64,000 nucleotides of DNA. It comes from an uncultured Heliobacteriaceae bacterium (GTDB lineage Bacteria > Acidobacteriota > Blastocatellia > RBC074). Below the pieces are notes generated by a model that saw only the letters and a program-made list of their open reading frames with translations, was not told the DNA's origin and did no database searches. The translations under genes and the position numbers were made by a program. The first letter of the stretch is position 1, and every line of letters begins with the position of its first letter. Location of the stretch: positions 4,147-68,146 of the forward strand of contig CAYXVZ010000023.1 in assembly GCA_964468345.1 (NCBI GenBank), given 5' to 3'. Shown in pieces: positions 824-52,343 of the stretch.

Positions 824-3229
824 ATGAATTCCCTGTTTATCGTTCGCCGCATTTCGTTCGTTTTCTTCTGTCTGTTTCTCGCCGCCTGCAGCAATCCCGA
901 GAAGGAAAAGGCCCGTCATATCAGCAAGGGCAAGGAATATCTGGCTGCGAAAAAATATGCCGAGGCGCGCATCGAATTTCGCAGCGCCCTGCAGATCGAT
1001 CGGCGCAATCCGGCCGCGCAGTTCGGCCTGGGCGAAGCCGCCTTGTCGCTCGGCTATGTGCAAGAAGCCGCCGAGGCCTATTACGAAACGATGCGGCTCG
1101 ATGCGAACAACCTCGACGCCCGCATCCGCGTCGGCAGCCTCCTGGCGCAATACGACAGCAAGGACAGCATCAACGAAGCCGAGCGGCTGGCCAATGAGGT
1201 CCTGCAGAAAAAGTCCGACAGCATCGAAGGCCGCATCCTGCTCGCCAATGTGCGCATGGCCCAGAAAAAATGGGATGAAGCGAAGCAGGAATTCGATCGC
1301 GCCGTGCAGATGGATCCGAACCGAATCGAATCGCAAATCAGCCTGGCGCGCTATTTCGACGAACGCGCCAAGGCCGAGCCCGCGCTCGGCCCAAGTTACA
1401 AAACGCAGGCGGAAGCGATCTTCAAGCAAACCATCGAGAAGAATCCCGCGGTGGCGACGCTGCGCCTTTCCTACGGCGATTTTCTTTTCGCGAACAACCG
1501 CTCCTCGGAAGCCGAACAGGAATTGATCGCGGCGCACAAGGCCGATCCGCAGGAAAAACTCGTGCTGCTCGCGCTGCGGCGCTATTACGAATCCATCGAA
1601 CGCTACGACGAAGCGGAGAATTACACGAAGAAGCTGGCCGAGATGGATCCGGACAAAACCGCGGGCCGGGCGCAGATCATCGACCTGCACGCGCGCACGG
1701 GCCGTCTCTATCAGGCGATCGGCGAATACCAGCAATTGCTCAAAGACGATCCGAAATACCTGCGCGGTTATTCGCGGCTGGCGGAGCTACTGCTCGAAGT
1801 GGGCGATGCGACCGGCGCAACGCGCAACGTCGACGCGGCGCTCAAGCAAAATCAGCAGGACACGGATGCCTTGTTGATGCGCGGGCGGCTGAACACGCTC
1901 AATGGCCAGTATCGCGAAGCCGTGAGCGACCTCGACACGGTGCTGCGCGTCGAGCCGGCGATGCCGTCGGCGCTGTATTACGCCGCAGATGCGCATCTGG
2001 CCAACAACGATGCGACCCAGGCACGCCTGTACGTAAATCGCCTGTTGAATTTCTTTCCGAAAAATCCGATGGGATTGCTGATGCAGGTGCGCGTGCAGCT
2101 TCACGAAGGCAAGGCCGCGGACGCGGAAAAGACGGCGACCTCGATTCTCGACAATATCGCGCAATTGAAATCGAATACGGCGGCCTTGCAGGCGGCGCGC
2201 ATTCCGCAGGACAGTTTGCCGAACTGGGAAAGCAAGGCCTATATCTCGCGCGCCGTCGCGCGCATTCAACTGCGCAATTTCCCGGGCGCGAAATCGGACC
2301 TCGACCAGGCCTCGAAGATCGATCCGCGCAGCGCTGAGCCACACATTAATATGGCGGCGATCCTGCTGCTCGAAGGCGATCTGCAGAATGCTGCCACCGA
2401 AGCCGAACGCGCCGTCGATCTGCAGCCGAGCAATATTGCGGCCTCGACGACGCTGGTCAATGTCTATCTCCGGCAAAAGAATTTTCACGCCGCGCAGCTC
2501 AAGCTCGATCAATTGTTATCGGCGCAGCCCAAGCGCCTGCAACTGGTCGAACTCAAAGCCCGCGTCTATGTTGCGGCCGGCGACGCGCAGAATGCAGAGA
2601 AGACGCTGCAACAGATCATTCAAACCGATCCGAATTACCTGAGCGCCTATTTTCTGCTTAGCGATTTTTATCAATCCTCGCAATCGCGCACCGATCAGGC
2701 CATCCGGCAATTGCAGGACTTGATCCGCCTGCGGCCGGACAATATCCAGCAGGTCGCCAATGCTCATCTGTTTATCGGGATTCTGGAAGAGGGCCGCGGG
2801 AATATTCCGGAGGCGGTGCGAAACTACGAACAGATGCTCAGCTATGACAAGCGATCGATGGCGGCGGCCATCGCGATGAACAACCTCGCCTGGCTCTATG
2901 CGGATCGGGATCTCGGCAATCTCGACAAGGCCGCGGATCACGCCCGCAACGCCATCAACGTTTCGCCCGAAGCCAGCTTTTATGACACGCTGGGCTACGC
3001 CTACTACAAGAAGAAGCAATACGAAGTGGCCATCGAACAATTCGCCAAAGCCATCAGCCGCAATCCGGACAAGGCCGGCTATCACCTGCATCTGGCCCGC
3101 GCTTATCGCGACAACGGCGAGACGCAAAAAGCCCGCGCCGCATATGAAAAGGCGCTGCAGATCGGCGGAACGGTGTTCCCAGAGGCGGGAGCGGCAAGAG
3201 CGGAACTGGCTTCGCTGCGGAAAAGTTAA
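824..3229 (+). CDS. TPR-repeat lipoprotein (PrsT-like)
   Basis: Lipobox FLAAC, then many TPR-like helical repeats over 801 aa. Confidence 0.8.
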   Translation: MNSLFIVRRISFVFFCLFLAACSNPEKEKARHISKGKEYLAAKKYAEARIEFRSALQIDRRNPAAQFGLGEAALSLGYVQEAAEAYYETMRLDANNLDARIRVGSLLAQYDSKDSINEAERLANEVLQKKSDSIEGRILLANVRMAQKKWDEAKQEFDRAVQMDPNRIESQISLARYFDERAKAEPALGPSYKTQAEAIFKQTIEKNPAVATLRLSYGDFLFANNRSSEAEQELIAAHKADPQEKLVLLALRRYYESIERYDEAENYTKKLAEMDPDKTAGRAQIIDLHARTGRLYQAIGEYQQLLKDDPKYLRGYSRLAELLLEVGDATGATRNVDAALKQNQQDTDALLMRGRLNTLNGQYREAVSDLDTVLRVEPAMPSALYYAADAHLANNDATQARLYVNRLLNFFPKNPMGLLMQVRVQLHEGKAADAEKTATSILDNIAQLKSNTAALQAARIPQDSLPNWESKAYISRAVARIQLRNFPGAKSDLDQASKIDPRSAEPHINMAAILLLEGDLQNAATEAERAVDLQPSNIAASTTLVNVYLRQKNFHAAQLKLDQLLSAQPKRLQLVELKARVYVAAGDAQNAEKTLQQIIQTDPNYLSAYFLLSDFYQSSQSRTDQAIRQLQDLIRLRPDNIQQVANAHLFIGILEEGRGNIPEAVRNYEQMLSYDKRSMAAAIAMNNLAWLYADRDLGNLDKAADHARNAINVSPEASFYDTLGYAYYKKKQYEVAIEQFAKAISRNPDKAGYHLHLARAYRDNGETQKARAAYEKALQIGGTVFPEAGAARAELASLRKS

Positions 3230-3239
3230 TGGCGCTTTT

Positions 3240-3319
3240 GCCGCAGATCGAACAGAAAAACGCGGATCAAACCTGGCTTTCTTATCCGCGTTACTCTGCG
3301 TTTATCTGCGGCTTTTTTT
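3240..3319. repeat. Palindromic element (ccgcagat/aacgcggat family), probably acting as terminator
   Basis: Imperfect arms 3240-3267/3284-3312 followed by a T run, between convergent genes. Confidence 0.7.
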
Positions 3320-3332
3320 AAGGAACTCGGGA

Positions 3333-3803
3333 TCAGACTCGATCCAGGGAGCGGGTTGTGTGCTCTGCGACGCTGGAAATCGGTTCCTGCGATGATTCGG
3401 TGAGCATTTTATTTGTATCCGGCGGCGAGAGCGGAGGAGCGGAACGTGCTTTCTTACGCTCTTCCTTGATCTGCTGCAGTTCATTCCATTTCCCAATGAA
3501 GGCGATATACAGCGCAATCCAGGCAATCCCCCCGAGAATGCCGAGGCCGGTCCAGAAGTGTCCCTGGACCAACATCACCCAATACACAATGGCGGATGCC
3601 CCCGTGAGCAGCAGACTGGCCAGCAAGGCCTGGATTCCCCGCCCCACCATCCGTTCCGTTCGGCGTAACTCCACGGGCAGATCAGCGCCTTCCTCGGCAA
3701 GCTGTTCCTGAAAGACCTGCGTTAGCTTTTCGAGCCCGAAGCCACAGGCACGACAGAATTTCTGATTCTCGGCAGCGCGGGCGCCACAACTTGGACAATG
3801 CAT
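3333..3803 (-). CDS. Zinc-ribbon membrane protein
   Basis: MHCPSCG...FCRACG, two hydrophobic helices, GGAGGT SD before ATG 3803. Confidence 0.75.
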   Translation of the reverse strand: MHCPSCGARAAENQKFCRACGFGLEKLTQVFQEQLAEEGADLPVELRRTERMVGRGIQALLASLLLTGASAIVYWVMLVQGHFWTGLGILGGIAWIALYIAFIGKWNELQQIKEERKKARSAPPLSPPDTNKMLTESSQEPISSVAEHTTRSLDRV

Positions 3804-3967
3804 AAAAGACCTCCCATTGAATCCTATTGATGGAATACGCAACGAGAGCGGAAAGGTTCGACCAGGAAAGGAAACGATAAGAAAGAAAGTGTTACCATCC
3901 CCTTCTCATCGTTCCTTCCTGGCGCATCCGTCTAAATCAGTGCATACAACTTTGGGACAAAGCTCTT

Positions 3968-5016: not shown

Positions 5017-6776
<1,760 letters not shown>

Positions 6777-6780
<4 letters not shown>

Positions 6781-6919
6781 GCAGGAGGCAGCGGCAGGAG
6801 GCAGGCGATGACCGTGGAGAGACCAAAAGCAGTTGGCAGGAACAACTGATAGGAGAGCGCGCTGGCGCTCACGATGACAGTGGCTTGGATACTGCCGACT
6901 GCCGCTGCCTCCTGCCTCC
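6777..6919. repeat. Palindromic element (gtaggcaggaggcag family)
   Basis: Arms 6777-6805/6892-6919 between convergent genes. Confidence 0.8.
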
Positions 6920-6929
6920 TTCTTTCCGC

Positions 6930-9314: not shown

Positions 9315-9384
9315 ATGCGCCTCCAGTTTTCGTGTTGTTTACGACCAGCTCAAGCGGAAGGGGAACCGCTGAAACCCGATTATA

Positions 9385-9519
9385 CAGGAAGCAGGAGGCA
9401 GCGGCAGGAGGCAGGGTCTTTCGCCACTGCATAATCCATTTTTATTGTGCCTCCGGCAGAGTTCCTGCCTACTGCTGCTGCCGACTGCCTCCTGCTTCTT
9501 CTGCCACTGCCTCCTGCCT
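9385..9519. repeat. Palindromic element (gcaggaggcag family); right arm overlaps YihY 3' end
   Basis: Arms 9385-9415/9464-9498, with an extra unit to 9519. Confidence 0.75.
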
Positions 9520-21223: not shown

Positions 21224-21994
21224 ATGACGGACGCGAAACGCGCGCCGCGGCTGCTGGCCGCGATGGCACATCCGGACGATGCGGAGATTCTGGTCGGCGG
21301 CACGCTCTTTCAACTCAAGGCGCGCGGCTGGGAGCTGGGCATTCTCACGATGACCAGCGGCGATTGCGGCTCGGCGACGCATACGCGGGAAGAAATTTCG
21401 CGCATTCGATATCAGGAAGCGGAGGAAGCCGCCGCGCTGCTCGGCGCGGACTATCAGTGCGCGGGGATGATGGATATCGAGGTCTTCGCGAATACCAACA
21501 GCGTGCGGCGCGTCGTCGAGGCATTGCGGCGCTTCGCGCCGGATGTGGTGCTGACGCATTCGCCGGTGGATTACATGGTCGATCACGAAGAGACCTCGCG
21601 CATCGTCCGGTCGGCGGTCTTCACGGCGTCGGTTCCGCTCTATCAGACGCACCAGATTGCGCCGGCGACGGCGATGGCGACCACGCCCGCGCTCTATTAC
21701 GCGGATCCGGTCGAAGGGGTCGACGCGATGGGACAGCGCATCCGGCCGCAGTTTTTCGTGAACATCGAAGACACAATGGAACAGAAACTGGCCATGCTGG
21801 CCTGTCATCGTTCGCAGCGGGACTGGCTGCGCGCGCATCACGGCATGGATGAATATCTGGAGCAGGTCCGCCGCTGGGGCGCGCGCTTCGGCGCGGACTG
21901 CGGCGCGGCCTTCGCCGAAGGCTTTCGGCAACATCTGGGGCACGGCTATCCGCATGAGCCGATTCTGCAACGGGCCTTGCCGGTGCTCGACTGA
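21224..21994 (+). CDS. PIG-L/LmbE family deacetylase
   Basis: [31 protein letters not shown]. Confidence 0.9.
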
Positions 21995-22004
21995 TCCATT
22001 CAAT

Positions 22005-22059
22005 ACGCGAAGCGTTTGTAGTGCGGCGTCAAACCCGCCGCACTACAAACGCTTCGCGT
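22005..22059. repeat. Perfect 24-bp REP-like hairpin
   Basis: acgcgaagcgtttgtagtgcggcg, 7-nt loop, exact reverse complement. Confidence 0.9.
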
Positions 22060-22108
22060 GTCATACGTTTTATTTGTACTAACATCCCTCTTCTGGAGAC
22101 GACTTCTT

Positions 22109-23146
22109 ATGAGTGACATCAATATTGGCATCGTGGGCCTTGGCTGGGTGGCGGGCGCGCACATTTCGGCGTTCAATAAAATTCCAGGGGCCAAAGTGAC
22201 GGCTGTCTGTTCGCGCCGCGAACTGGATGAAAAGGCGCTGGAACAACAGTACGGCACGCCGCTCAAGGCCTATCGCGATTTCGATGCGATGCTGAAAGAC
22301 CCGTCGATTCACGTGATCGACGTCTGCACGCCGCATCCGCTGCATGCCGAACAGACCATCGCCGCCGCGAAGGCCGGCAAACACCTGATCATCGAAAAGC
22401 CCCTGGCGCTGAAATACGAAGACACGGTTGCCATGAAAAATGCGATCGACGCGGCTGGCGTCAAAACCTGCGTCTGTTTCGAAGTCCGTTTCAGCCAGCA
22501 GGCCAGCGTCATTCGCGCGACAATCGACGAAGGCCTCGTCGGCGCGCTGCATTATGCCGAAGTCGATTATTATCACGGCATCGGCCCGTGGTACGGGCAG
22601 TTCGGCTGGAACATCAAAAAAGACATGGGCGGCAGCAGTCTGCTCACCGCCGGCTGTCACGCGCTCGATTTGCTGTTGATGTTTATGGGCGGCGAAGTCG
22701 AGGAAGTCACAAGTTATAGCAACCGCACGAAAAGCCCGATTTTCGCGCCGTATGAATACGACACGACCTCGGTCACGCTGCTCAAATTCAAGGACGGCCG
22801 CATCGGCAAGGTCGCTTCGGTGACGGATTGCCTGCAGCCGTATTATTTCCACATTCATCTCTGCGGCAGCGAAGGCAGCATCCTCGACAATCGGCTGTAT
22901 TCGGCCAAGCTCAAAGTCACCAAGGACCGCTGGAGCACGCTGGAAACCAACCTGATCGACTCCGGCGACGTCGCGCACCATCCCTACCTGCCGCAATTCC
23001 AGGCCTTCATCGACAGCCTGCAAAAGAACGAAACGATGCCCCTGACGGATTTCAACACCGCCTTCGAATCCCACCGCGTCGTCTTCGCCGCCGATCAGTC
23101 GGCCGCGGAAAAGCGGACGGTGAAGATGTCGGAATTGAAAGTGTAG
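22109..23146 (+). CDS. Gfo/Idh/MocA family oxidoreductase
   Basis: [37 protein letters not shown]. Confidence 0.92.
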
Positions 23147-23148
23147 GG

Positions 23149-23264
23149 AAGGCAGGGGCGAGAGATTAGGGGCGAGGGGCGAGAAGAAGGAGGCAGCGGC
23201 AGTCGGCAGGAAGCAGGTTCTTTGCCAGCAGGTCTTTTGCTCTTTACACTCGCCACTCGCCACT
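23149..23264. repeat. Left arm of ~116-bp inverted repeat (mosaic of ggggcga and gcaggaggcag families)
   Basis: About 89% identical by manual alignment to the reverse complement of 23644-23760. Confidence 0.85.
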
Positions 23265-23292
23265 GCTTTCTCGCCCCTCGCCCCTTTCTTAT

Positions 23293-23664
23293 ATGAAAAT
23301 TCTCAACTACATCATGGCTGCGATGTTTCTGTTTTCGGTGGTCGTGCAATATAACGATCCCGATCCGCTGGTATGGATGACGATCTATGGCGCGGCGCTC
23401 GCGGTGTGCGTGCTGGAGATTCTCGGGCGGAATCGATGGTATTTCCCCGCGATGGTGGGAGCGATCACGCTGGTCTGGGCCTTGATGCTCGTCTCCCAGG
23501 TGCTCGGCAAAGTGGCCTTCAGCGAACTCTTCGAAGCCTGGGAAATGAAGGACCAGCGCGTCGAAGTCGCCCGCGAAATGGGCGGCCTCTTGATCGTGGC
23601 TTTTTGGATGATGGTTTTGACGGGAATACAGTGGCGAGTGGCGAGGGGCGAGGGGCGAGAGTAA
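23293..23664 (+). CDS. Transmembrane 220 (TMEM220-like) family protein
   Basis: VQYNDPDP.VW..IY, E.AREMGGL.I; four TM helices. Confidence 0.85.
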   Translation: MKILNYIMAAMFLFSVVVQYNDPDPLVWMTIYGAALAVCVLEILGRNRWYFPAMVGAITLVWALMLVSQVLGKVAFSELFEAWEMKDQRVEVAREMGGLLIVAFWMMVLTGIQWRVARGEGRE

Positions 23665-23760
23665 AGGGTAAGAGACCTGCTGGCATCGAATCCTGCTTCC
23701 AGCCGACTGCCGCTGCCTCCTTCTTCTCGCCCCTCGCCCCTAATCCCTCGCCCCTGCCTT
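23644..23760. repeat. Right arm of ~116-bp inverted repeat, overlapping the TMEM220 3' end
   Basis: Reverse complement of 23149-23264; includes the gene's last codons and stop. Confidence 0.85.
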
Positions 23761-23762
23761 TC

Positions 23763-24974
23763 TCAATCCGCCACTTCCGCTTCAATATCATCTTTCCGCA
23801 GCACGTCGAGCAGTTGTTCGACGTGATCGCGGCCGCGGGTTTCGAGGATGAGGTCGATTTCGACGCCGCCGACGTCGAGGTCGGAGAAGGCGCGGTTGTG
23901 GGTGACTTCGAGAATGTTGGCGCCGATGTCGGCGGCGCGCTGGCAAATGCGGGCGAGTTCGCCGGGACGATCGCGGGCGATGACACGGACGCGGACGAGG
24001 CGGCCGTCTTTCGCGAGACCCCGCTCGATGATTTTTGAGAGCAGCGTCGGATCGATGTTGCCGCCGCTGACGATCACGGCGACCGTCTTGCCTTCAATGT
24101 CCGGAATCTTGCCGAACATCAGCGCGGCAAGGCCGACCGCGCCGCCGCCTTCGACGACGGTCTTTTCGATTTCGAGAAGCTTCAAAATCGCGCTGGCGAT
24201 TTCGTCTTCGTTGACGGTGACGATGTCGTCGACATAATGGCGGACGACTTCGCAGGTCCGCTCGCCGGAGCGCTTCACGGCCAGGCCGTCGGCGATCGTC
24301 TGGTGCGCGGGAACTTCGACGGGATGACCGGCTTCGACGGCGCGTTTCATCGAGGGGAAGGCATCGGGCTCAACGCCGATGATGCGGATGTTCGGGCGCG
24401 ATTCTTTCAGGGCTACCGCCACGCCGCTGACCATGCCGCCGCCGCCGATGGGGACGACCACCGCATCGAAGGCCGCTTCTTCTTCCAACAATTCAAGGCC
24501 GATGGTTCCCTGTCCGGCAATGATGGCTTCGTCGTCGAAGGCATGCACAAACGTCAGCCCCCGCTCCGCCGCAAGCTGTTTGGCATGCGCCAGCGCTTCG
24601 TCGTAATTCGCGCCGTGAAGAATGACTTCGCCGCCGAGGTCCCGCGTGTTCGTGACCTTGATCAGCGGCGTCGGGCGCGGCATGACGATGATCGATTGAA
24701 TGCCCAGCCGCGTCGCGTGATAGGCGACGCCCTGCGCGTGGTTGCCTGCACTGGCCGCGATCACGCCGGCCTTCCGCTCCCGTTCGGTCAACTGCAACAG
24801 CTTGTTGAGCGCGCCCCGCTCCTTGAAGCTGCCCGTCATCTGCAGGTTCTCGAGTTTGAAATAGATGCGGCATCCGCACAGCTTGCTCAGCGTCAGCGAT
24901 TGCGGGCATGGGGTGTGATAAATGGCGCGGCCCAACCGGGCGCGCGCGGCTTCGATGTCTTTAAGAGTTACCAT
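23763..24974 (-). CDS. ilvA: Threonine ammonia-lyase with C-terminal ACT domain
   Basis: [45 protein letters not shown] domain (TdcB/IlvA medium form). Confidence 0.92.
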
Positions 24975-25413
24975 GAATGCGCGTTTCCTTGATCAGCGTC
25001 CGTTTGATCAGTTCTCCGTTTTGAAACCAGTGCCAGGTGCGGGCCCGATGATTGCCGTCCGAACTGAGCTGAATCATCTCGTAGAGGTACGTTTCCGGAT
25101 CGGCCTTGTACCGCCAGGTCAGCACCATCGTGTTTTCATCGATCTCCCAGGCATGACCCTGCATACGTTCCGTATCGAACCAGATCTTTCCGTCCCTGAA
25201 CGCGGCCGGAAAATGATGCTCCTCCCGCCGGCCATCCGCCCACAGATAGCGATTGATCTGATGATAATCCGCCGGGGCATCGGGAGGAATCCGGCAGGTC
25301 AGATGCGACTCATGCCGGTCCAGGACGTTCCCCGAGGCATCGACGTGGATATAGGTGCCCTTCCATTCGCCCTCGTGCCGTCGCAGCAAAGGCATCTCTT
25401 CGCGTATTCCCAT
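24961..25413 (-). CDS. DUF3598-like beta-barrel protein
   Basis: [26 protein letters not shown]. Confidence 0.7.
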
Positions 25414-25432: not shown

Positions 25433-25559
25433 AAGTAGGCAGGAGGCAGCGGCAGTCGGCAGGATGAATTGCCACGATCAACCTTCTAACCGACTTGTAT
25501 AATTTCCTGTATTCAACTTCGACTACTTCCTGCCGACTGCCGCTGCCTCCTGCCTACTT
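25433..25559. repeat. Palindromic element with perfect 32-bp arms (GTAG-initiated gcaggaggcag family)
   Basis: 25433-25464 is the exact reverse complement of 25528-25559. Confidence 0.9.
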
Positions 25560-25791: not shown

Positions 25792-28700
25792 ATGAAAAAT
25801 CGTGATTTCAGCTTTCTCCTGATCCCGTTCGCCGCGCTGCTTGCAGCCTACCTGCCTTTTTCATCCGGGGGACAACAGACCCCGAACCGGAATCCTCCAA
25901 TCGTCACAGAAAAAGGAGCCGCCGCCGAAGGAACGGCAACCACAGAAAAACAGGCACCGGCCGTTCCGCTGGCGAGCAAGGACAACAACGCTGTCCAACT
26001 GTTGTATCAGTTTTTATACGCGAATCCGGAAGCCTGCCAGGCGGGGACTGGCGATGTTCCGTCAAATGTGCGCGAGATGAAATCGCAGTACGTGCTCGAA
26101 TTCCTGATCGCCACCATGCCCGATCCGCGGGAATCGCGGTTGGATTATCTGTTCGATCGAAATCTAGATGCGGTGCAACGCGCCATCGAATCAGTCGGCT
26201 ATGTGCTGGATCGGTACGATTTTCCGAAGCACTGGCGGAACGAAGCGAACGGGAACGGCGATCGCGGCGGAAAAGAAGATTCCACGGCGGATCAGCCCGG
26301 ATTGATTTTATTTCGCAGCCGGACGCTCGATACGCCGCGCTATTGTCCCCGCGAAAACGATGAAAGCCGGCAAGCGCGCAATCCTTCCGGCCGTCTGCTG
26401 GTATTGTTTATCGTGGGCGAAACGCCGACGGCGGGCATCAATAAAACCGCGCTGAAAAATGCGCTCGATCAAATCACCTTGCTTTCGCTGTGGAACGAGG
26501 GCGCGCCGGAGGAATATGCCTGTCTGCCGCGGCCGGCGCGCGACGGTTGCAAATCTCCGATTCCGGATGTGTGTTGGCCTGATACCGGCGCGCCGCCCGA
26601 CCGTGAGATTCGAATCATGGGACCGACCTTTTCCGGCTCCGAAGATTCGCTGGAACTGGCCCTGCAAAGCTGGCTTGAAGAGAACAAGGGCGCCTTCCTC
26701 TCGCGAGACGACAACCCCACCATGCCGCCCGTGTTTTCCGTCTTATCGGGCAGCGCAACCTCGATCAGTCAGTGCAAGTTCTGCAATCGAATCAAGACCC
26801 ATGGACAGCCTGTCTTTCATTCCACGGTGCCGTCGAGTCAGGTGTCGATCGAAGCCTTCAAGGAAGATCTGGTAAGGAACGATCCGCTCGCCGCCCGCAA
26901 CAAGATCGCCATTTTCAAAGAGACGAATACGGTCTATGGCCAGTCCTCGATGTTTTCTTCCGCCGGCAGAAAACAGGAACAAACGGCGGCGTCAGGGATG
27001 ATGATCGATGGGCAATGGATTTCGAGTGAATCCCCGGCCTGCCCGGATCAAAAGCCGCGCGCGACGATCCGGACGATCGACATTCCCTTTCCCCTTCATA
27101 TCTCGCAGCTGCGCACCGCATCGGAAAAAGCGAAATCGTCCCGAGCGACGCCGGCCCTGGATCTGCGAAGCATCCGCCGGCCGATCCTGCCTCTGTTGAT
27201 GGACGATGAACGGACAACGCAGGATGTCATTCCGCTGTTTTCCCAGTTGGAACCGGCTTCGCTGGAACTGGTCCTCTCGAATCTGCTCAATGAAATGAAT
27301 CGGGAACAGATCCGTTACATCGGCATCGTTTCGACCGACGTCAAAGACTGCATTTTTCTGGTAAGCGAGATTCGCAAACATTGCCCGAATGCGATCGTGT
27401 TTCTATTCTTCGCGGATGTGCTGTACCTGCGCCCCGAGGTCAATCTGGACCTGCAGGGCGCGCTGGTGGTGACGCCGTATTCGCTGTATGGACCGAATCA
27501 ATTCTGGAGCTATCCCATCAGCGGGCAGCAGACGCGGTTTCAATTTTCCACGCATGTTTCGCAGGGAGCCTATAACGCAACCCTCGCCCTGATGGGCAAA
27601 AGCGAGTTGATCGAATACGGCAAGCCCTTCGACAATGTCTTCGTCAATCCGATGCAGGGGCGACTTCCCGATGAAACGCCGCGCAAACCCGCGCTCTGGG
27701 TCAGCGTTGTCGGGCGACAGGGCTTTATGCCGGTGAAGACGCTGGAATACGAGAAACTGCTGGGCGATGGTCCGGCTGTGCTCGACCGGTATCCATTGCC
27801 GATTCCGCGAACCGCAACGCCGCCGCCCGCGCCGATTCTGCATCTGGCGGGCGGCATCAATTCCAAAATGACGACGGCGGTCCTGGTGTTGCTGATCATG
27901 CTCGGGCTGCTGCCGGTGGCGATGCTCGTTCTGCTCATCGCCCGGACCTTTCACCTGCCCATCGATCGAATCGGCCCGTTGCAGCGCCTGCAAAACAGTT
28001 GGCTCGGCGAAATGATCAGCGATGCGGTCATCCCGGATTATTTCCTGCGTCGGCGCGTGTACCTGCTCGCCTGCTGCGCCGGCCTGCTGGTCATTTATCT
28101 TTCGCTGATGTGGGTCTTTCTGCTGCCGCTTCATGTGTTGTGGGATTCGGCCAGAGATGTCTCGGCTTTCGATACGCTCGCGTACTTCCTGTGGCCCGGG
28201 GCGACGTGGAAATCAGAGCGATTGTTGCCGGACGCGGGCAATTCCCTGCTGGTGGCACGCCTTGCCGTCGGCACGGTGATGGCCTTCTCCACATTGGCAA
28301 CACTCTGGCTGTGCGGCAGCGTGACGGAATTGTTTTATAGCCGGACGCGCAAAACTGAGTTGAAAGACGCGCCCGCCAAAGCGTCGGCCAAGCCCCGTTT
28401 CTATCCGTCCGCCGTGGCGGCGTTTTTCCTGGGCCTGGCCACGATCGTCGCGATCGGCACCTTCCTGATGCAAAGCCGCCCCTCGCCGCTGCACGTGTAC
28501 TTTTTCGTTCGCGCGACCGATCTGACCAGCGGCGTTTCTCCGCTGTTGCCGCTGTTGCTGATCGGCCTGGCGGCCTTTTTATGCGCGTTTTGCGCGCTGC
28601 GCCGGTGGAGTCTCGTCGAACGCGCTCATCTGACGAAGCATTGGGAACTGAAATTGAAATGGAACGAGTTTCCGCACACGCAATCGTTTTTGAATTTCGA

Positions 28701-29781
28701 AGGCGCCGGCAATAACGCACAATGTTCCCTGAGCGGCGTCAGCCGCATGGAAACCCGCGTGATGAAGCTGCTGGAAATGCCTTCCTATCGCCTGCCGGCG
28801 TCCTTCCTGGTGCTGGCCATCGTCCTCGGCGCAATGTTGTATGTTTTCTTTTACCGCTATATCCCGAGCATGGAAGGTATGTGGTATGACCGCGCCTTTC
28901 GGCTGGCCTTTTTCATCGTTTCGCTCGGACTCGGCCTGGACTTCCTGCGCTTCGTTTCCATCTGGATGGCGCTGCGCAAGCTGCTGCGAAGGCTGGCGAG
29001 CCATCCGCTGTTTATGCGGCAAATCGGCGAGAAGACAGTTTTCAACGAATTGCCGCAGATCAGCCTGACGTCGCCCGCGCCGAATTACACGCCGCTTTCG
29101 TTGTCGGTCACGCAGGCCGTCAAACTCTGCCGAATGATGGGATCCGCCGCCAAACAGGAAGGCCTGAGCGAACAGGTCGTCTTAGCGGAACAAAACCTGC
29201 AAAAGCTGTTGGAATTCAAAGCCCGGGATCAATGGCAGGAAGTGCAAAAGATGCGATGCGAGGTGCAGGCGCGCCTCGCCGATATTGCCGGAAAAGTCGC
29301 GCTTCTGCTCGAGCCGGGTTGGAGCCTGTCGTCGCCGGGATCCGCTTTCAAGGCCGCAGACCCGGCGTGGATCGCGCAGGCGGAGTTGTTTCTGGCCGGC
29401 CGCGTCTATTCGTTTCTGCAATACCTGTTGGCGCACCTGCAAAATCTGGTCGTTTTTGTCACGACGGGCATGTTGCTGGTGCTGCTTTCGATCACGTCCT
29501 ATCCCTTCCAACCGCGCGATCTGATGCTGCTTTTCGGCTGGTTGCTGATCCTGCTCGTGGTCGCGGCGACGCTGGTCGTCTTCACGCAGATGGATCGCGA
29601 CAAGGTGCTCAGCCTGCTCTCAGGCGGCGATCCGGGCAAGCTGAACTGGAACCGGGAATACATCTGGCGCGTCCTGATTCACGGCGTGGTCCCCATCCTG
29701 GCCCTGCTCAGTGCGCAGTTTCCCGAAGCCTTGCAACAGATCGCCACCTGGGTCAGCGCGTTGCAGGGCGGCGGACGGTAA
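25792..29781 (+). CDS. Large uncharacterised membrane protein (extracytoplasmic domain plus multi-TM C-terminal half)
   Basis: 1329-aa ORF; N-terminal signal/TM; ~650-aa soluble region; about 10 or more hydrophobic helices. Confidence 0.8.
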   Translation: MKNRDFSFLLIPFAALLAAYLPFSSGGQQTPNRNPPIVTEKGAAAEGTATTEKQAPAVPLASKDNNAVQLLYQFLYANPEACQAGTGDVPSNVREMKSQYVLEFLIATMPDPRESRLDYLFDRNLDAVQRAIESVGYVLDRYDFPKHWRNEANGNGDRGGKEDSTADQPGLILFRSRTLDTPRYCPRENDESRQARNPSGRLLVLFIVGETPTAGINKTALKNALDQITLLSLWNEGAPEEYACLPRPARDGCKSPIPDVCWPDTGAPPDREIRIMGPTFSGSEDSLELALQSWLEENKGAFLSRDDNPTMPPVFSVLSGSATSISQCKFCNRIKTHGQPVFHSTVPSSQVSIEAFKEDLVRNDPLAARNKIAIFKETNTVYGQSSMFSSAGRKQEQTAASGMMIDGQWISSESPACPDQKPRATIRTIDIPFPLHISQLRTASEKAKSSRATPALDLRSIRRPILPLLMDDERTTQDVIPLFSQLEPASLELVLSNLLNEMNREQIRYIGIVSTDVKDCIFLVSEIRKHCPNAIVFLFFADVLYLRPEVNLDLQGALVVTPYSLYGPNQFWSYPISGQQTRFQFSTHVSQGAYNATLALMGKSELIEYGKPFDNVFVNPMQGRLPDETPRKPALWVSVVGRQGFMPVKTLEYEKLLGDGPAVLDRYPLPIPRTATPPPAPILHLAGGINSKMTTAVLVLLIMLGLLPVAMLVLLIARTFHLPIDRIGPLQRLQNSWLGEMISDAVIPDYFLRRRVYLLACCAGLLVIYLSLMWVFLLPLHVLWDSARDVSAFDTLAYFLWPGATWKSERLLPDAGNSLLVARLAVGTVMAFSTLATLWLCGSVTELFYSRTRKTELKDAPAKASAKPRFYPSAVAAFFLGLATIVAIGTFLMQSRPSPLHVYFFVRATDLTSGVSPLLPLLLIGLAAFLCAFCALRRWSLVERAHLTKHWELKLKWNEFPHTQSFLNFEGAGNNAQCSLSGVSRMETRVMKLLEMPSYRLPASFLVLAIVLGAMLYVFFYRYIPSMEGMWYDRAFRLAFFIVSLGLGLDFLRFVSIWMALRKLLRRLASHPLFMRQIGEKTVFNELPQISLTSPAPNYTPLSLSVTQAVKLCRMMGSAAKQEGLSEQVVLAEQNLQKLLEFKARDQWQEVQKMRCEVQARLADIAGKVALLLEPGWSLSSPGSAFKAADPAWIAQAELFLAGRVYSFLQYLLAHLQNLVVFVTTGMLLVLLSITSYPFQPRDLMLLFGWLLILLVVAATLVVFTQMDRDKVLSLLSGGDPGKLNWNREYIWRVLIHGVVPILALLSAQFPEALQQIATWVSALQGGGR

Positions 29782-30000: not shown

Positions 30001-31581
30001 TCAGTACCGATATTTCATCCGCGCCGCCATTTGCGTCAGCGTGCGCGCGAGGGAGCGGGCTTCTTCGAGAGGAAGGTTTTCGATGCGGGGGCCGCCTTCG
30101 GTATAGGCCTGGCCGGCCGTGTCGATGCGCAGCGAAGCGAGGCCGAGGCGGCGATCGAAGGGCGTTTGTTGCAGGCTCACGGCCTGCACCTTGCTGAGCG
30201 GAACGATGTGCGTCGAGCGGCCGAGCCAGCCGCGGCGCGTCTGAAAATAGCGGCCGCTGAGCGCATAGCCCAACCGCCTATAGCTGGCGACATTCATCCA
30301 CCAGACAAAAGGCAGAAGCGCTAGCGGCCAGACGGCGTGCAGGTTATGCCGGAAGAAAAAGAGGCCAACAGAGGCGAGCAGGCACAGCACGATCCAGGGC
30401 ACGATTCCGCGCCGAATCGCCAGCGGCGAAACCTGCCGCCATTCGGCTTGCTCTTCGTGAAAATCCGGCAGCAGTTCGGGCAGCAGGCTCGCAACGTCGC
30501 GCGTGCGAACGATCGGCAACAACACATCGCGGCCTTTATTGTCGTCTTCATTGTCGCGCTTCGCGCCGGCCGTGTCTGCGCGAAGCGTAGCGAGGCCGAA
30601 CAGACGGCGAAAGAGTTTCTCTTCGATTTCCAGCACCTGAATCCGGCGTCGCGGCAGGCTGCTGGCGCGTGTCGTCAACAAACCGTAGCGGCGTCTGAGA
30701 TCTTCGCCGCGCGATGAAATCGTGAATCCATAAAACAGCACGATGCTGCCGATCACAGAGAAAAACGAGCCGATGACGAAGACGGCGATCAAACCGCCGA
30801 TGACAACCAGAAACGCATATCTCGCCCCATACCCAAAAAAGCGGTCGGCATTTTTATAGAGATAATTCGCGGCGGTTTTATAGATTGTGTCGGGCAGCAG
30901 GTCATCCGCGAAATTCAAAGCGGCGCCGGCAAGAGCGAGCGCGGAGAGAAGGTGATTTGTCGTAATGCCGGCGAGCACCAGATCCATCCAGCTCAACCGG
31001 CGGATAACGCGGTCTTCAGGCTCGGCGACTTCTGACGAATCGACGCGCCCTCTGCCCATGGCGCCCGCGCGCACGGCGGTTCGCAAGCGATCGGCTTCGG
31101 CTCGCGACAGGACCGAAAGCTTCGCCTCCACGTCTTCGCCGCCGCCGGTTTCCACCGTGGCATCGACCACATCGAACAGGCGATGCACGATGCCCTGCTC
31201 GATTCGAATCTCCTGCACCCGTTCGAGGGGAATGCTGCGATGGCGGCGCTCGATCAGGCCGGACTCGATAATGAGCTCGCCTTTTTCGATGCGATAGCTG
31301 AAGGAAAAATACCGGATGAGCGCCGTGGCGATGGTGCTCAGCGAGGCAATGGCGATCACGACCCAGCCATAACCGCGGCCGCCGACCACCGCGACTGTTC
31401 CCACCGGAACCAGGCCCCGCGCCGCGCGCAAAAATGCGAAGACCAGCGTCAACGGATGCAACCGGCCGCGAAAGATTTCCTCCACCGTCGATGCTGTCGA
31501 TTCCGGCAGGCTTTCGGGAAGACTGGGCGGAAGATCGGGCGCGGGCTCAAGGTCAGACGGCATCGTCGCCTCCGATTTCAA
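30001..31581 (-). CDS. YdbT-like membrane protein with bacterial PH domains
   Basis: RLHPLTL, SIPLERVQEIRIEQ, GLATLRADTAG, IVPLSKVQAV.L.QTPFDRRLGLASL.IDTAG. Confidence 0.88.
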   Translation of the reverse strand: MKSEATMPSDLEPAPDLPPSLPESLPESTASTVEEIFRGRLHPLTLVFAFLRAARGLVPVGTVAVVGGRGYGWVVIAIASLSTIATALIRYFSFSYRIEKGELIIESGLIERRHRSIPLERVQEIRIEQGIVHRLFDVVDATVETGGGEDVEAKLSVLSRAEADRLRTAVRAGAMGRGRVDSSEVAEPEDRVIRRLSWMDLVLAGITTNHLLSALALAGAALNFADDLLPDTIYKTAANYLYKNADRFFGYGARYAFLVVIGGLIAVFVIGSFFSVIGSIVLFYGFTISSRGEDLRRRYGLLTTRASSLPRRRIQVLEIEEKLFRRLFGLATLRADTAGAKRDNEDDNKGRDVLLPIVRTRDVASLLPELLPDFHEEQAEWRQVSPLAIRRGIVPWIVLCLLASVGLFFFRHNLHAVWPLALLPFVWWMNVASYRRLGYALSGRYFQTRRGWLGRSTHIVPLSKVQAVSLQQTPFDRRLGLASLRIDTAGQAYTEGGPRIENLPLEEARSLARTLTQMAARMKYRY

Positions 31582-32080
31582 TCAAATGATCGCGCAGCCG
31601 AACCGCCTCGGCGTCTTCCAGGCCGGGAATGGTCATGCTCGCCTCATGCGTGCCGGCCGTGTGCAGAATCAGCGACGCCAGGCCGAACCGGCGTTCGAAG
31701 GGACCGCGCTCGATGTCGACATGTTGCAGGCGCGACAGGGGGAGCAGGCGGGTTCGCTGAAAGAGCAGGCCGTTGCGAATTTCCAACACGCGGTCATCGA
31801 TGCGATAGCTCCACGAACGATACACGCGCGGCGGACGAATCCAAGCCAGCCAGAAACAAATCAACGCCAGCACCATCCACCCGGCAATCGCCACCCAAAA
31901 ATACGAGCCTTTGAAGGGAATGAAAAACAGGGCAATCAGTTGGACCAGCAGCAGAACCCCATATCCAATGGCATTTGTCACGCGCCACAACGGCACGACT
32001 CGCGCATCGAGCGGTCGAAACACCGGCCCGGATTCAATGACTGGAAGGGACTCAATGGAGATCTCGTTTTCCGTTTGCAT
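31553..32080 (-). CDS. YdbS-like membrane protein with bacterial PH domain
   Basis: Y..WSYRI, LPLSRLQHVDIERGPFERRFGLASL..HTAGT. Confidence 0.88.
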   Translation of the reverse strand: MQTENEISIESLPVIESGPVFRPLDARVVPLWRVTNAIGYGVLLLVQLIALFFIPFKGSYFWVAIAGWMVLALICFWLAWIRPPRVYRSWSYRIDDRVLEIRNGLLFQRTRLLPLSRLQHVDIERGPFERRFGLASLILHTAGTHEASMTIPGLEDAEAVRLRDHLIEIGGDDAV

Positions 32081-33075: not shown

Positions 33076-33123
33076 GCGGAGCTTTGGAGTGCGGCGACTT
33101 GTCGCCGCACTCCAAAGCTCCGC
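33076..33123. repeat. Perfect 23-bp palindrome (REP-like) inside the ABC operon
   Basis: gcggagctttggagtgcggcgac-tt-gtcgccgcactccaaagctccgc. Confidence 0.9.
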
Positions 33124-52235: not shown

Positions 52236-52250
52236 CGGCTGAAAAGCGGC

Positions 52251-52331
52251 GAGGGGCGAGGGGCGAGTGAAAAGCTCCATAGAAAGCGAGCGTTGTAATA
52301 CGCGAAGCGTTTCACTCGCCCCTCGCCCCTC
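52251..52331. repeat. Palindromic element with perfect 22-bp arms (ggggcga family)
   Basis: 52251-52272/52310-52331 between convergent genes. Confidence 0.88.
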
Positions 52332-52343
52332 ACCTCTCCCCCC

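Follow-up and report, generated by a model that had tools for sequence, protein, structure and literature searches.

Is a gene that stands between the arms of a long inverted repeat the cargo of a mobile element, the moving part of a genetic switch, or an older resident around which the repeats were built? The question is raised by the stretch of 64,000 nucleotides analysed here (hereafter the window), in which a gene for a small membrane protein of the TMEM220 family is enclosed by two arms of more than 100 nt. The explanation that we consider likely as a whole is that a composite hairpin came to lie in two inverted copies around an ancestral gene, and that the pair then became the substrate of a flip.

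The locus and its paired hairpins

The features on which the analysis is based are as follows.

21224-21994, plus strand: PIG-L gene (Pfam)
22109-23146, plus strand: gene for a Gfo/Idh/MocA-type oxidoreductase (Gfo), the left flank (Pfam PF01408/PF22725/PF02894)
23149-23285, no strand assigned: left arm, a composite nested hairpin (repeat finding, alignment, folding)
23164-23207, partner 23702-23745, no strand assigned: 44-nt perfect inverted core, within which the rearrangement breakpoints of the sister lineage L001 fall
23222-23250, plus strand: putative promoter TTGCCA-17-TACACT in the inner half of the left arm (consensus match 9/12)
23293-23664, plus strand: gene for a TMEM220-family (PF15071) small membrane protein of 123 aa (Pfam E 5.9e-21, residues 12-109)
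23629-23760, no strand assigned: right arm, the inverted copy of the left arm (repeat finding, alignment, folding)
23763-24974, minus strand: ilvA, threonine ammonia-lyase (PALP and ACT domains), the right flank (Pfam)
24961-25413, minus strand: DUF3598 gene (Pfam)
25433-25559, no strand assigned: simple GCAGG-family hairpin with 32-nt perfect arms, 24-26 nt in common with the arm core
52245-52337, no strand assigned: simple GGGGCGA-heptamer hairpin, filling the spacer between the convergent lpxB and asparaginase genes

The Gfo stop codon (TAG) is at 23144-23146, and ilvA is convergent with both the Gfo gene and TMEM220. The source organism is an uncultured acidobacterium of soil type belonging to the class Blastocatellia, and the closest named relatives of the window proteins are Blastocatellia MAGs. 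The first-pass annotation of the window, made from the sequence alone, had described a single 123-aa membrane gene between convergent genes, bracketed by two reverse-complementary arms of about 116 bp and about 89% identity. This description was borne out: the enclosed gene is TMEM220, the flanking genes do converge (Gfo on the plus strand, ilvA on the minus strand), and both the coordinates and the identity of the arms are right, since 23149-23261 aligns with 23760-23647 in inverted orientation over 114 nt with 91.2% identity (blastn-short, E 1e-35 to 1e-37). A repeat finder reported the inverted repeat as two stretches, one of 88 nt with 88% and one of 61 nt with 77% identity, and gapped local alignment of 23149-23285 with 23629-23760 gave 86% over 138 columns; the longest perfect inverted stretch is the 44-nt core. 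The inverted repeat is real and far above chance.

The arms had also been described as a mosaic of two repeat families, in agreement with the GGGGCGA heptamers that we find around a GAAGGAGGCAGCGGCAGTCGGCAGGA core. In the left arm, GGGGCGA heptamers (23155-23182) are followed by the GCAGG-type core (23183-23218), a decayed complement with the loop (23219-23248) and CTCGCCA/CTCGCCC heptamers (23249-23285). The right arm runs from GTGGCGA/GGGGCGA heptamers (23631-23658), which overlap the 3' end of TMEM220, through a decayed inner part (23659-23691) and the complement of the core (23692-23726) to TCGCCCC heptamers (23727-23752). Each arm is a nest, with GGGGCGA heptamers on the outside pairing with CTCGCCA/CTCGCCC, and with the GAAGGAGGCAGCGGCAGTCGGCAGGA core and then its decayed complement on the inside. 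The opposed arrays comprise three GGGGCGA against four CTCGCCx units in the left arm, and four GTGGCGA/GGGGCGA against three TCGCCCC units in the right arm.

The left arm starts 2 nt past the Gfo stop (TAG-GG-AAGGCAGG) and the right arm 2 nt past the ilvA stop (TGA-GA-AAGGCAGG). Both arms have the same polarity relative to their outward flanking gene and, since Gfo and ilvA are convergent, the arms are mutually inverted. The outer junctions read TAG-GG/AAGG... and ...CCTT/TC-TCA, and no direct repeat that could represent a target-site duplication was seen at 23147-8 and 23761-2, the arm ends being somewhat fuzzy. An apparent extension of the inverted repeat into the coding ends of the flanking genes (23130-23146 and 23763-23779) was rejected as chance, the codons concerned being ancestral in arm-less relatives.

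The first-pass annotation had further treated the arm pair as one element with two halves, and the smaller hairpins as empty versions of gene-carrying cassettes. Neither view is supported, because each arm of about 137 nt folds on its own into a whole hairpin (-67 to -82 kcal/mol, with z from -4.7 to -6.2) and is already a full small hairpin. One very large hairpin that received the gene as an insertion into its loop was rejected as well, since complementary heptamer arrays are present within each arm and the arms are younger than the gene. Read inward from Gfo on the plus strand, the left arm folds at about -77 kcal/mol (-76.7 to -77.8, z -4.7), against -67.1 kcal/mol on the other strand (seven G-U pairs on the plus strand and one on the minus strand). 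Read inward from ilvA on the minus strand, the right arm folds at -81.0 to -82.3 kcal/mol (z -6.2), against -71.5 kcal/mol on the other strand. The better folding of both arms when read inward from the flanking gene is compatible with a role as 3'-end RNA structure, and the arms may form RNA hairpins at the 3' ends of the transcripts of Gfo and ilvA. No Rfam family exceeded its threshold in the arms, in which generic hairpin (miRNA-precursor) matches reached 11-34 bits against thresholds of 40-137 bits, and no intrinsic terminators were found at a loop limit of 8 nt or less.

The arms fall within a class of tandem-heptamer-armed hairpins characterized by at least two tandem 7-nt units, inverted arrays, placement past a stop codon and multiple copies. 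The hairpin at 52245-52337 is a plain form of their outer family, and a further hairpin of the component families lies near 9381-9500. The hairpins of this genome typically adjoin the stop codons of convergent genes, and the one at 6771-6925, like that at 52245-52337, fills the spacer between such genes.

The right arm also reaches into the protein, as the first-pass annotation had it: approximately the last 11 residues of TMEM220 (QWRVARGEGRE) and its stop codon are read from the right-arm heptamers. In the strains of runs X8, X10 and X15, one 7-nt heptamer of this arm (23630-23636) is missing, which shifts the reading frame from QWRVARGEGRE-stop to QWRGARGESKG-stop, the stop following soon in both frames. 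The repeat-encoded tail of TMEM220 therefore varies by slippage. In the metatranscriptome run X26, from a strain of about 95% identity, ...CGCCACTG is joined straight to 23286, which points to a strain devoid of the CTTTCTCGCCCCTCGCCCC stretch of the left arm (23265-23285), as in L001.

The putative promoter motif is conserved in all four arms of the window and L001, and it sits in the gene-linked arm half. Two low-depth metatranscriptome contigs (23242-23488 and 23286-23462) extend over the 5' half of TMEM220 and do not include its neighbours. The starts of these contigs, at 23242 and 23286, do not confirm the transcription start of the putative promoter, and we do not regard the RNA contigs and the promoter-like motif as strong evidence.

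Ancestry of TMEM220 at the Gfo/ilvA junction

The order Gfo>TMEM220><ilvA, with short arm-less spacers and with TMEM220 in the same orientation as in the window, was found in at least eight Blastocatellia lineages. These spacers measure 7-77 nt on some sides and 18-30 nt where they adjoin ilvA, and PIG-L precedes the order shared by the arm-less relatives. The lineages concerned are the following.

L004-6: arm-less, with spacers of 64 and 30 nt
L027-30: arm-less, with 18-27 nt adjoining ilvA
L039: arm-less, with spacers of 7 and 20 nt
L054, L115 and L116/117: TMEM220 at the locus without arms
L002: the TMEM220 order without arms, ilvA side

The Gfo gene is syntenic in L004-6, L029, L038, L054 and L116. 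A search for TMEM220 yielded 344 homologs, and the gene keeps to the neighbourhood of ilvA across lineages. In the maximum-likelihood tree of ilvA, the window and L001 together are sister to all the arm-less gene-bearing lineages. The junctions of L033 and L034, in which Gfo and ilvA adjoin without TMEM220, are nested in the same tree beside the gene-bearing L039, and empty junctions nested among gene-bearing lineages correspond to secondary losses. TMEM220 is ancestral at this locus, has been vertically inherited there and is not mobile cargo. Comparison of synteny in relatives had been proposed by the first-pass annotation, which named an ancestral gene at the Gfo/ilvA locus in relatives lacking the arms as the finding that would speak against a gene shuttle, and this is the situation that was found.

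The genes beyond ilvA are arranged differently in the window and in some relatives. In L004, L027 and L028, bPH_2/DUF7642 genes directly adjoin ilvA. In the window (25792-29781 being the segment compared with L004, L027 and L028) these genes are 5 kb away, at 30001-32080, separated from ilvA by the DUF3598 gene and by an orphan membrane protein of 1329 aa.

A flipped gene in the sister lineage L001

L001, known from one 3.4-kb JGI metagenome contig (sample 3300038379), is the sole close relative in the collections searched: it was the only relative above 83% identity in the ilvA homolog search, and the metagenome contigs scanned with TMEM220 gave only relatives at 60% identity or less. Its proteins share 99% (Gfo), 95% (ilvA) and 88% (TMEM220) of their amino acids with those of the window. 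L001 has the same arms, and the gene between them is in the opposite orientation, the order being ilvA>, arm, TMEM220>, arm, <Gfo. Positions 127-1904 of the contig correspond to window 25464-23648 and positions 2422-3419 to window 23217-22227, both on the minus strand, whereas the middle of about 0.55 kb (1829-2388) corresponds to window 23185-23724 on the plus strand. The change-over of the alignment strand falls within the shared arm core, such that the gene-proximal arm halves go with the gene and the halves proximal to the stop codons remain with the flanks. The core at 23164-23207 is the likely crossover zone of the flip.

Identity to L001 at third codon positions is 0.83 for TMEM220 (0.945 at positions 1 and 2), 0.80 for ilvA, 0.80 for DUF3598 and 0.84 for Gfo. 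This uniformity indicates that the middle is as old as the flanks, and hence that it was turned round where it lay and had not been replaced. No exact inverted match within L001 is longer than 28 nt, which makes an orientation error of the assembler unlikely; a match of 28 nt is shorter than usual assembly k-mers and reads. Judged by comparison with outgroups, the orientation in the window is the ancestral one: none of the arm-less lineages is flipped, and both orientations occur only among the arm-bearing lineages. After the flip, TMEM220 is co-directional with ilvA and lies behind a much weaker hairpin (-23.9 kcal/mol). The alternative offered by the first-pass annotation, an invertible segment, stands in so far as the gene of L001 was flipped in place between the same arms, that is, as one evolutionary inversion between lineages.

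The arms themselves differ between the two lineages. The Gfo-side arm of L001 (2356-2460) contains three tandem 33-nt units (CCTGCCTCCTGCCGACTGCCGCTGCCTCCTACT), and its ilvA-side arm has no outer heptamers at all. These differences suggest that the arms grow and shrink fast.

All public runs containing the organism, among them biofilter, biofilm and freshwater metagenomes (X1-X20), are represented by Logan contigs of k=31 whose ends fall within the 44-nt core, and searches with Gfo and ilvA, by cluster and by exact match, gave nothing but short Logan contigs that break off at the arms. One joint of 23185 to 23724 ("skips 538", with AAGAA between) was considered as an excision product and rejected, as its sides are only 29 nt and it belongs to a different short hairpin of GGGGCGA units at another site of the genome.

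Families of recombinases or transposases were found neither among the neighbouring genes nor among the 43 window ORFs scanned (3+40), a set that is not exhaustive and includes about 10 crude ORF calls without a Pfam match, possibly in wrong frames. The scanned ORFs of the window likewise contained no RAYT gene.

Origin of the arms and competing explanations

The two halves of the arms differ in copy number. In two whole metagenomes in which the organism is present at about 9x and about 190x, the inner half (23196-23262) was found on one contig only, whereas words of the outer half were found on 42-60 contigs, at 25-57 times the single-copy depth. The inner arm half and the gene occur once per genome, and a pattern scan with the inner half gave no match in a genome-contig collection from which the species itself is absent. 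The two arms of the window and the two of L001 have one core in common, together with the decayed inner half TGCCAGCAGGTCT...CTTTAC, and the Gfo-side arms of the window and L001 start identically after the stop codon. As the inner half is common to the four arms and was found nowhere else, the arms are each other's closest relatives, which speaks for inverted copying, or homogenisation, at the locus itself and against two insertions that have nothing to do with each other; we infer that the arms arose by local copying.

A second case of bracketing was found in L038, another Blastocatellia lineage, in which TMEM220 lies between the copies of a 51-nt inverted repeat (3347-3397 and 3812-3862) with 94% complementarity, 39 nt of it perfect. 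This bracket consists of ACGGAA-type units, a family unrelated to that of the window, and each copy lies within a local hairpin. No such bracketing was found in 22 other TMEM220 loci.

The preferred explanation would run as follows. The arms would be two inverted copies of one composite hairpin repeat of the tandem-heptamer-armed, intergenic class of acidobacteria, and the copies would have come into the two short spacers flanking the ancestral TMEM220 in the common ancestor of the organism and L001. The pair may have been formed by local inverted copying or homogenisation, for example by template switching during replication or by gene conversion. It would then have acted as a substrate of intramolecular exchange, through which a segment of about 0.5 kb, consisting of the gene and the inner arm halves, was flipped in L001. 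Host homologous recombination or template switching, not a dedicated invertase, would have produced the flip. Inverted-repeat-mediated inversion of a spacer by homologous recombination or template switching was reportedly described by Bi and Liu in PNAS in 1996. The abstracts of two further sources (PMC8604942, PMC13100816) describe template switching between imperfect inverted repeats as homogenising or expanding the arms and inverting the spacer.

Two alternatives concern the way in which the gene and its arms came together. The arms could be two independent insertions from a composite family spread over the genome, each targeted just past a stop codon, with no local copying. The same heptamer/GCAGG junction does occur on contigs elsewhere in the genome, the placement of both arms exactly 2 nt past a stop would fit such targeting, and so would the habit of the hairpins of this genome to adjoin the stops of convergent genes. 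However, the decayed inner half occurs in the four arms and nowhere else in the two metagenomes and the genome-contig collection, and L038 also has matched arms around TMEM220, from a different family. We therefore consider independent insertion unlikely, while leaving it some weight. The REPIN- or MITE-like shuttle of the first-pass annotation, in which the arms are the ends of an element carrying TMEM220 between sites, would account for the architecture bounded by inverted repeats, for the presence of the outer arm half in a multicopy family, and for the empty Gfo/ilvA junction in two relatives. Nevertheless, many lineages have the gene in synteny but no arms, the nested position of the empty sites within the tree marks them as losses, the inner segment occurs in a single copy, the outer junctions show no target-site duplication, and TMEM220 has diverged in step with its flanks. 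A cargo cassette is extremely improbable on these grounds.

The other two alternatives concern the flip. In a programmed inverton, the arms would be recognised by a site-specific invertase whose gene lies elsewhere, and reversible flips within a population would, as a form of phase variation, toggle TMEM220 between positions downstream of the Gfo operon and of ilvA. The restriction of the two orientations to arm-bearing lineages, and the co-directionality of the flipped gene with ilvA behind a weaker hairpin, would be in keeping with such a switch. However, imperfect repeats of 114-138 nt that belong to a multicopy structural class are unlike the short specific sites typical of invertons; no recombinase was found beside the locus or among the scanned ORFs; and the divergence of about 18% at synonymous sites between the two orientations fits one old event. 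Moreover, the putative promoter is within the moving part, and since it moves with the gene, a flip would not obviously switch expression. We regard a programmed inverton as very unlikely. A similarly low probability is assigned to the possibility that there was no inversion, the orientation in L001 being an assembly error or a chimera and the two hairpins flanking the gene by chance. The flip is indeed known from one contig of one sample, and inverted repeats are a classic cause of mis-orientation in assemblies. Against this, exact inverted matches in L001 do not go beyond 28 nt, the gene-proximal arm halves move with the gene, as a real inversion predicts, and divergence is uniform over the three segments, which argues that the contig is not a mix of strains of different ages.

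The locus resembles several known systems in part. Rehm et al. 2015 (PMC4692102) reported heptamer simple-sequence repeats, GGGAATC in Xanthomonas and GGGGAYT in Nostoc, and the repeats described here resemble them in being G-rich tandem 7-nt units that are mostly non-coding, variable in number and within about 50 bp of stop codons. They differ from the repeats described there in forming nested hairpins with the heptamer outside and the GCAGG type inside, and the abstract of PMC4692102 does not include a composite duplicated in inverted orientation around a gene, or a gene flipped in a relative. REP and REPIN elements, which are mobilised by RAYT transposases (Bertels & Rainey 2011, PMC3116915; PMC3337134), are also multicopy extragenic palindromes, a REPIN consisting of two inverted REPs and a spacer that form a hairpin. 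However, REPIN spacers are short and gene-free, whereas here arrays of tandem units surround an ancestral gene. Each arm alone has the shape of a REPIN, with a multicopy outer half, and the pair of left and right arms encloses the gene and is single-copy. For a cargo MITE or composite transposon, the arm pair occupies one site only, the gene is present without arms, and there is no target-site duplication.

Invertons (PMC11892184; bioRxiv 10.1101/2023.03.11.532203) share with this locus a segment between inverted repeats that occurs in two orientations. They have dedicated invertases, short inverted repeats and mixed orientations in one population, and it is usually a promoter that is moved. 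Here, by contrast, the repeats are long, imperfect and structural, no invertase is nearby, a whole gene has moved, and the orientations were seen only between lineages. With the inversion of spacers between inverted repeats (PMC8604942, PMC13100816), the mechanism favoured here, the locus shares imperfect arms, an inverted spacer, and arms that are homogenised or expanded. That process is known mainly from short repeats and spacers in yeast or on plasmids, whereas the spacer here is a complete gene of 372 nt on a bacterial chromosome.

The locus is a new variant of known phenomena, namely REP-like palindromic repeats and inversion mediated by inverted repeats, and not a new kind of system; it is specialist in scope and of moderate interest overall. 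It provides a clear counter-example to the assumption that any gene lying in a large palindrome's loop has to be mobile cargo, as here the gene was the earlier of the two and the repeats were built around it. It also offers a concrete and dated case in which the poorly understood hairpin repeats of acidobacteria have remodelled a chromosome, through the inversion of one gene, a repeat-encoded tail that changes frame with the number of heptamers and perhaps also the loss of genes. Brackets of this design arose twice around TMEM220, from unrelated repeat families, which suggests a process of local copying or homogenisation. A bolder generalization, which we think distinctly doubtful, is that acidobacterial hairpins with tandem units multiply through templated copying, local and in inverted orientation, that their pairs flip or delete what lies between them independently of a recombinase, and that TMEM220 is toggled within the population. 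If this were true, such pairs would be a general and ongoing driver of strand inversions of single genes and of losses such as the empty Gfo/ilvA junctions, and the flip might be frequent enough here to toggle TMEM220 between two transcription contexts.

Other hairpin families occupy the same spacers in relatives, made of GGGGCTG units in L002 and, in L029, L033 and L034, of GACAGGATT units. The spacer between TMEM220 and ilvA in L002 (5460-5577) is a GGGGCTG-type heptamer-armed hairpin (-88.6 kcal/mol), in the position of the right arm of the window and of another sequence family. In L033 (3713-3803) and L034 (1430-1509), which have no TMEM220, a lone 80-91-nt hairpin of GACAGGATT units parts the stops of Gfo and ilvA. 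It is of the same family as the L029 hairpin (1519-1598) that lies just upstream of TMEM220, and it could be the scar of a repeat-mediated deletion. Within the window, near-perfect GC-rich stem-loops with GTGCGGCG were observed in the spacer between PIG-L and Gfo (21995-22060, about 25 bp) and at 33081-33118 (about 17 bp), and these look like a separate REP-like family.
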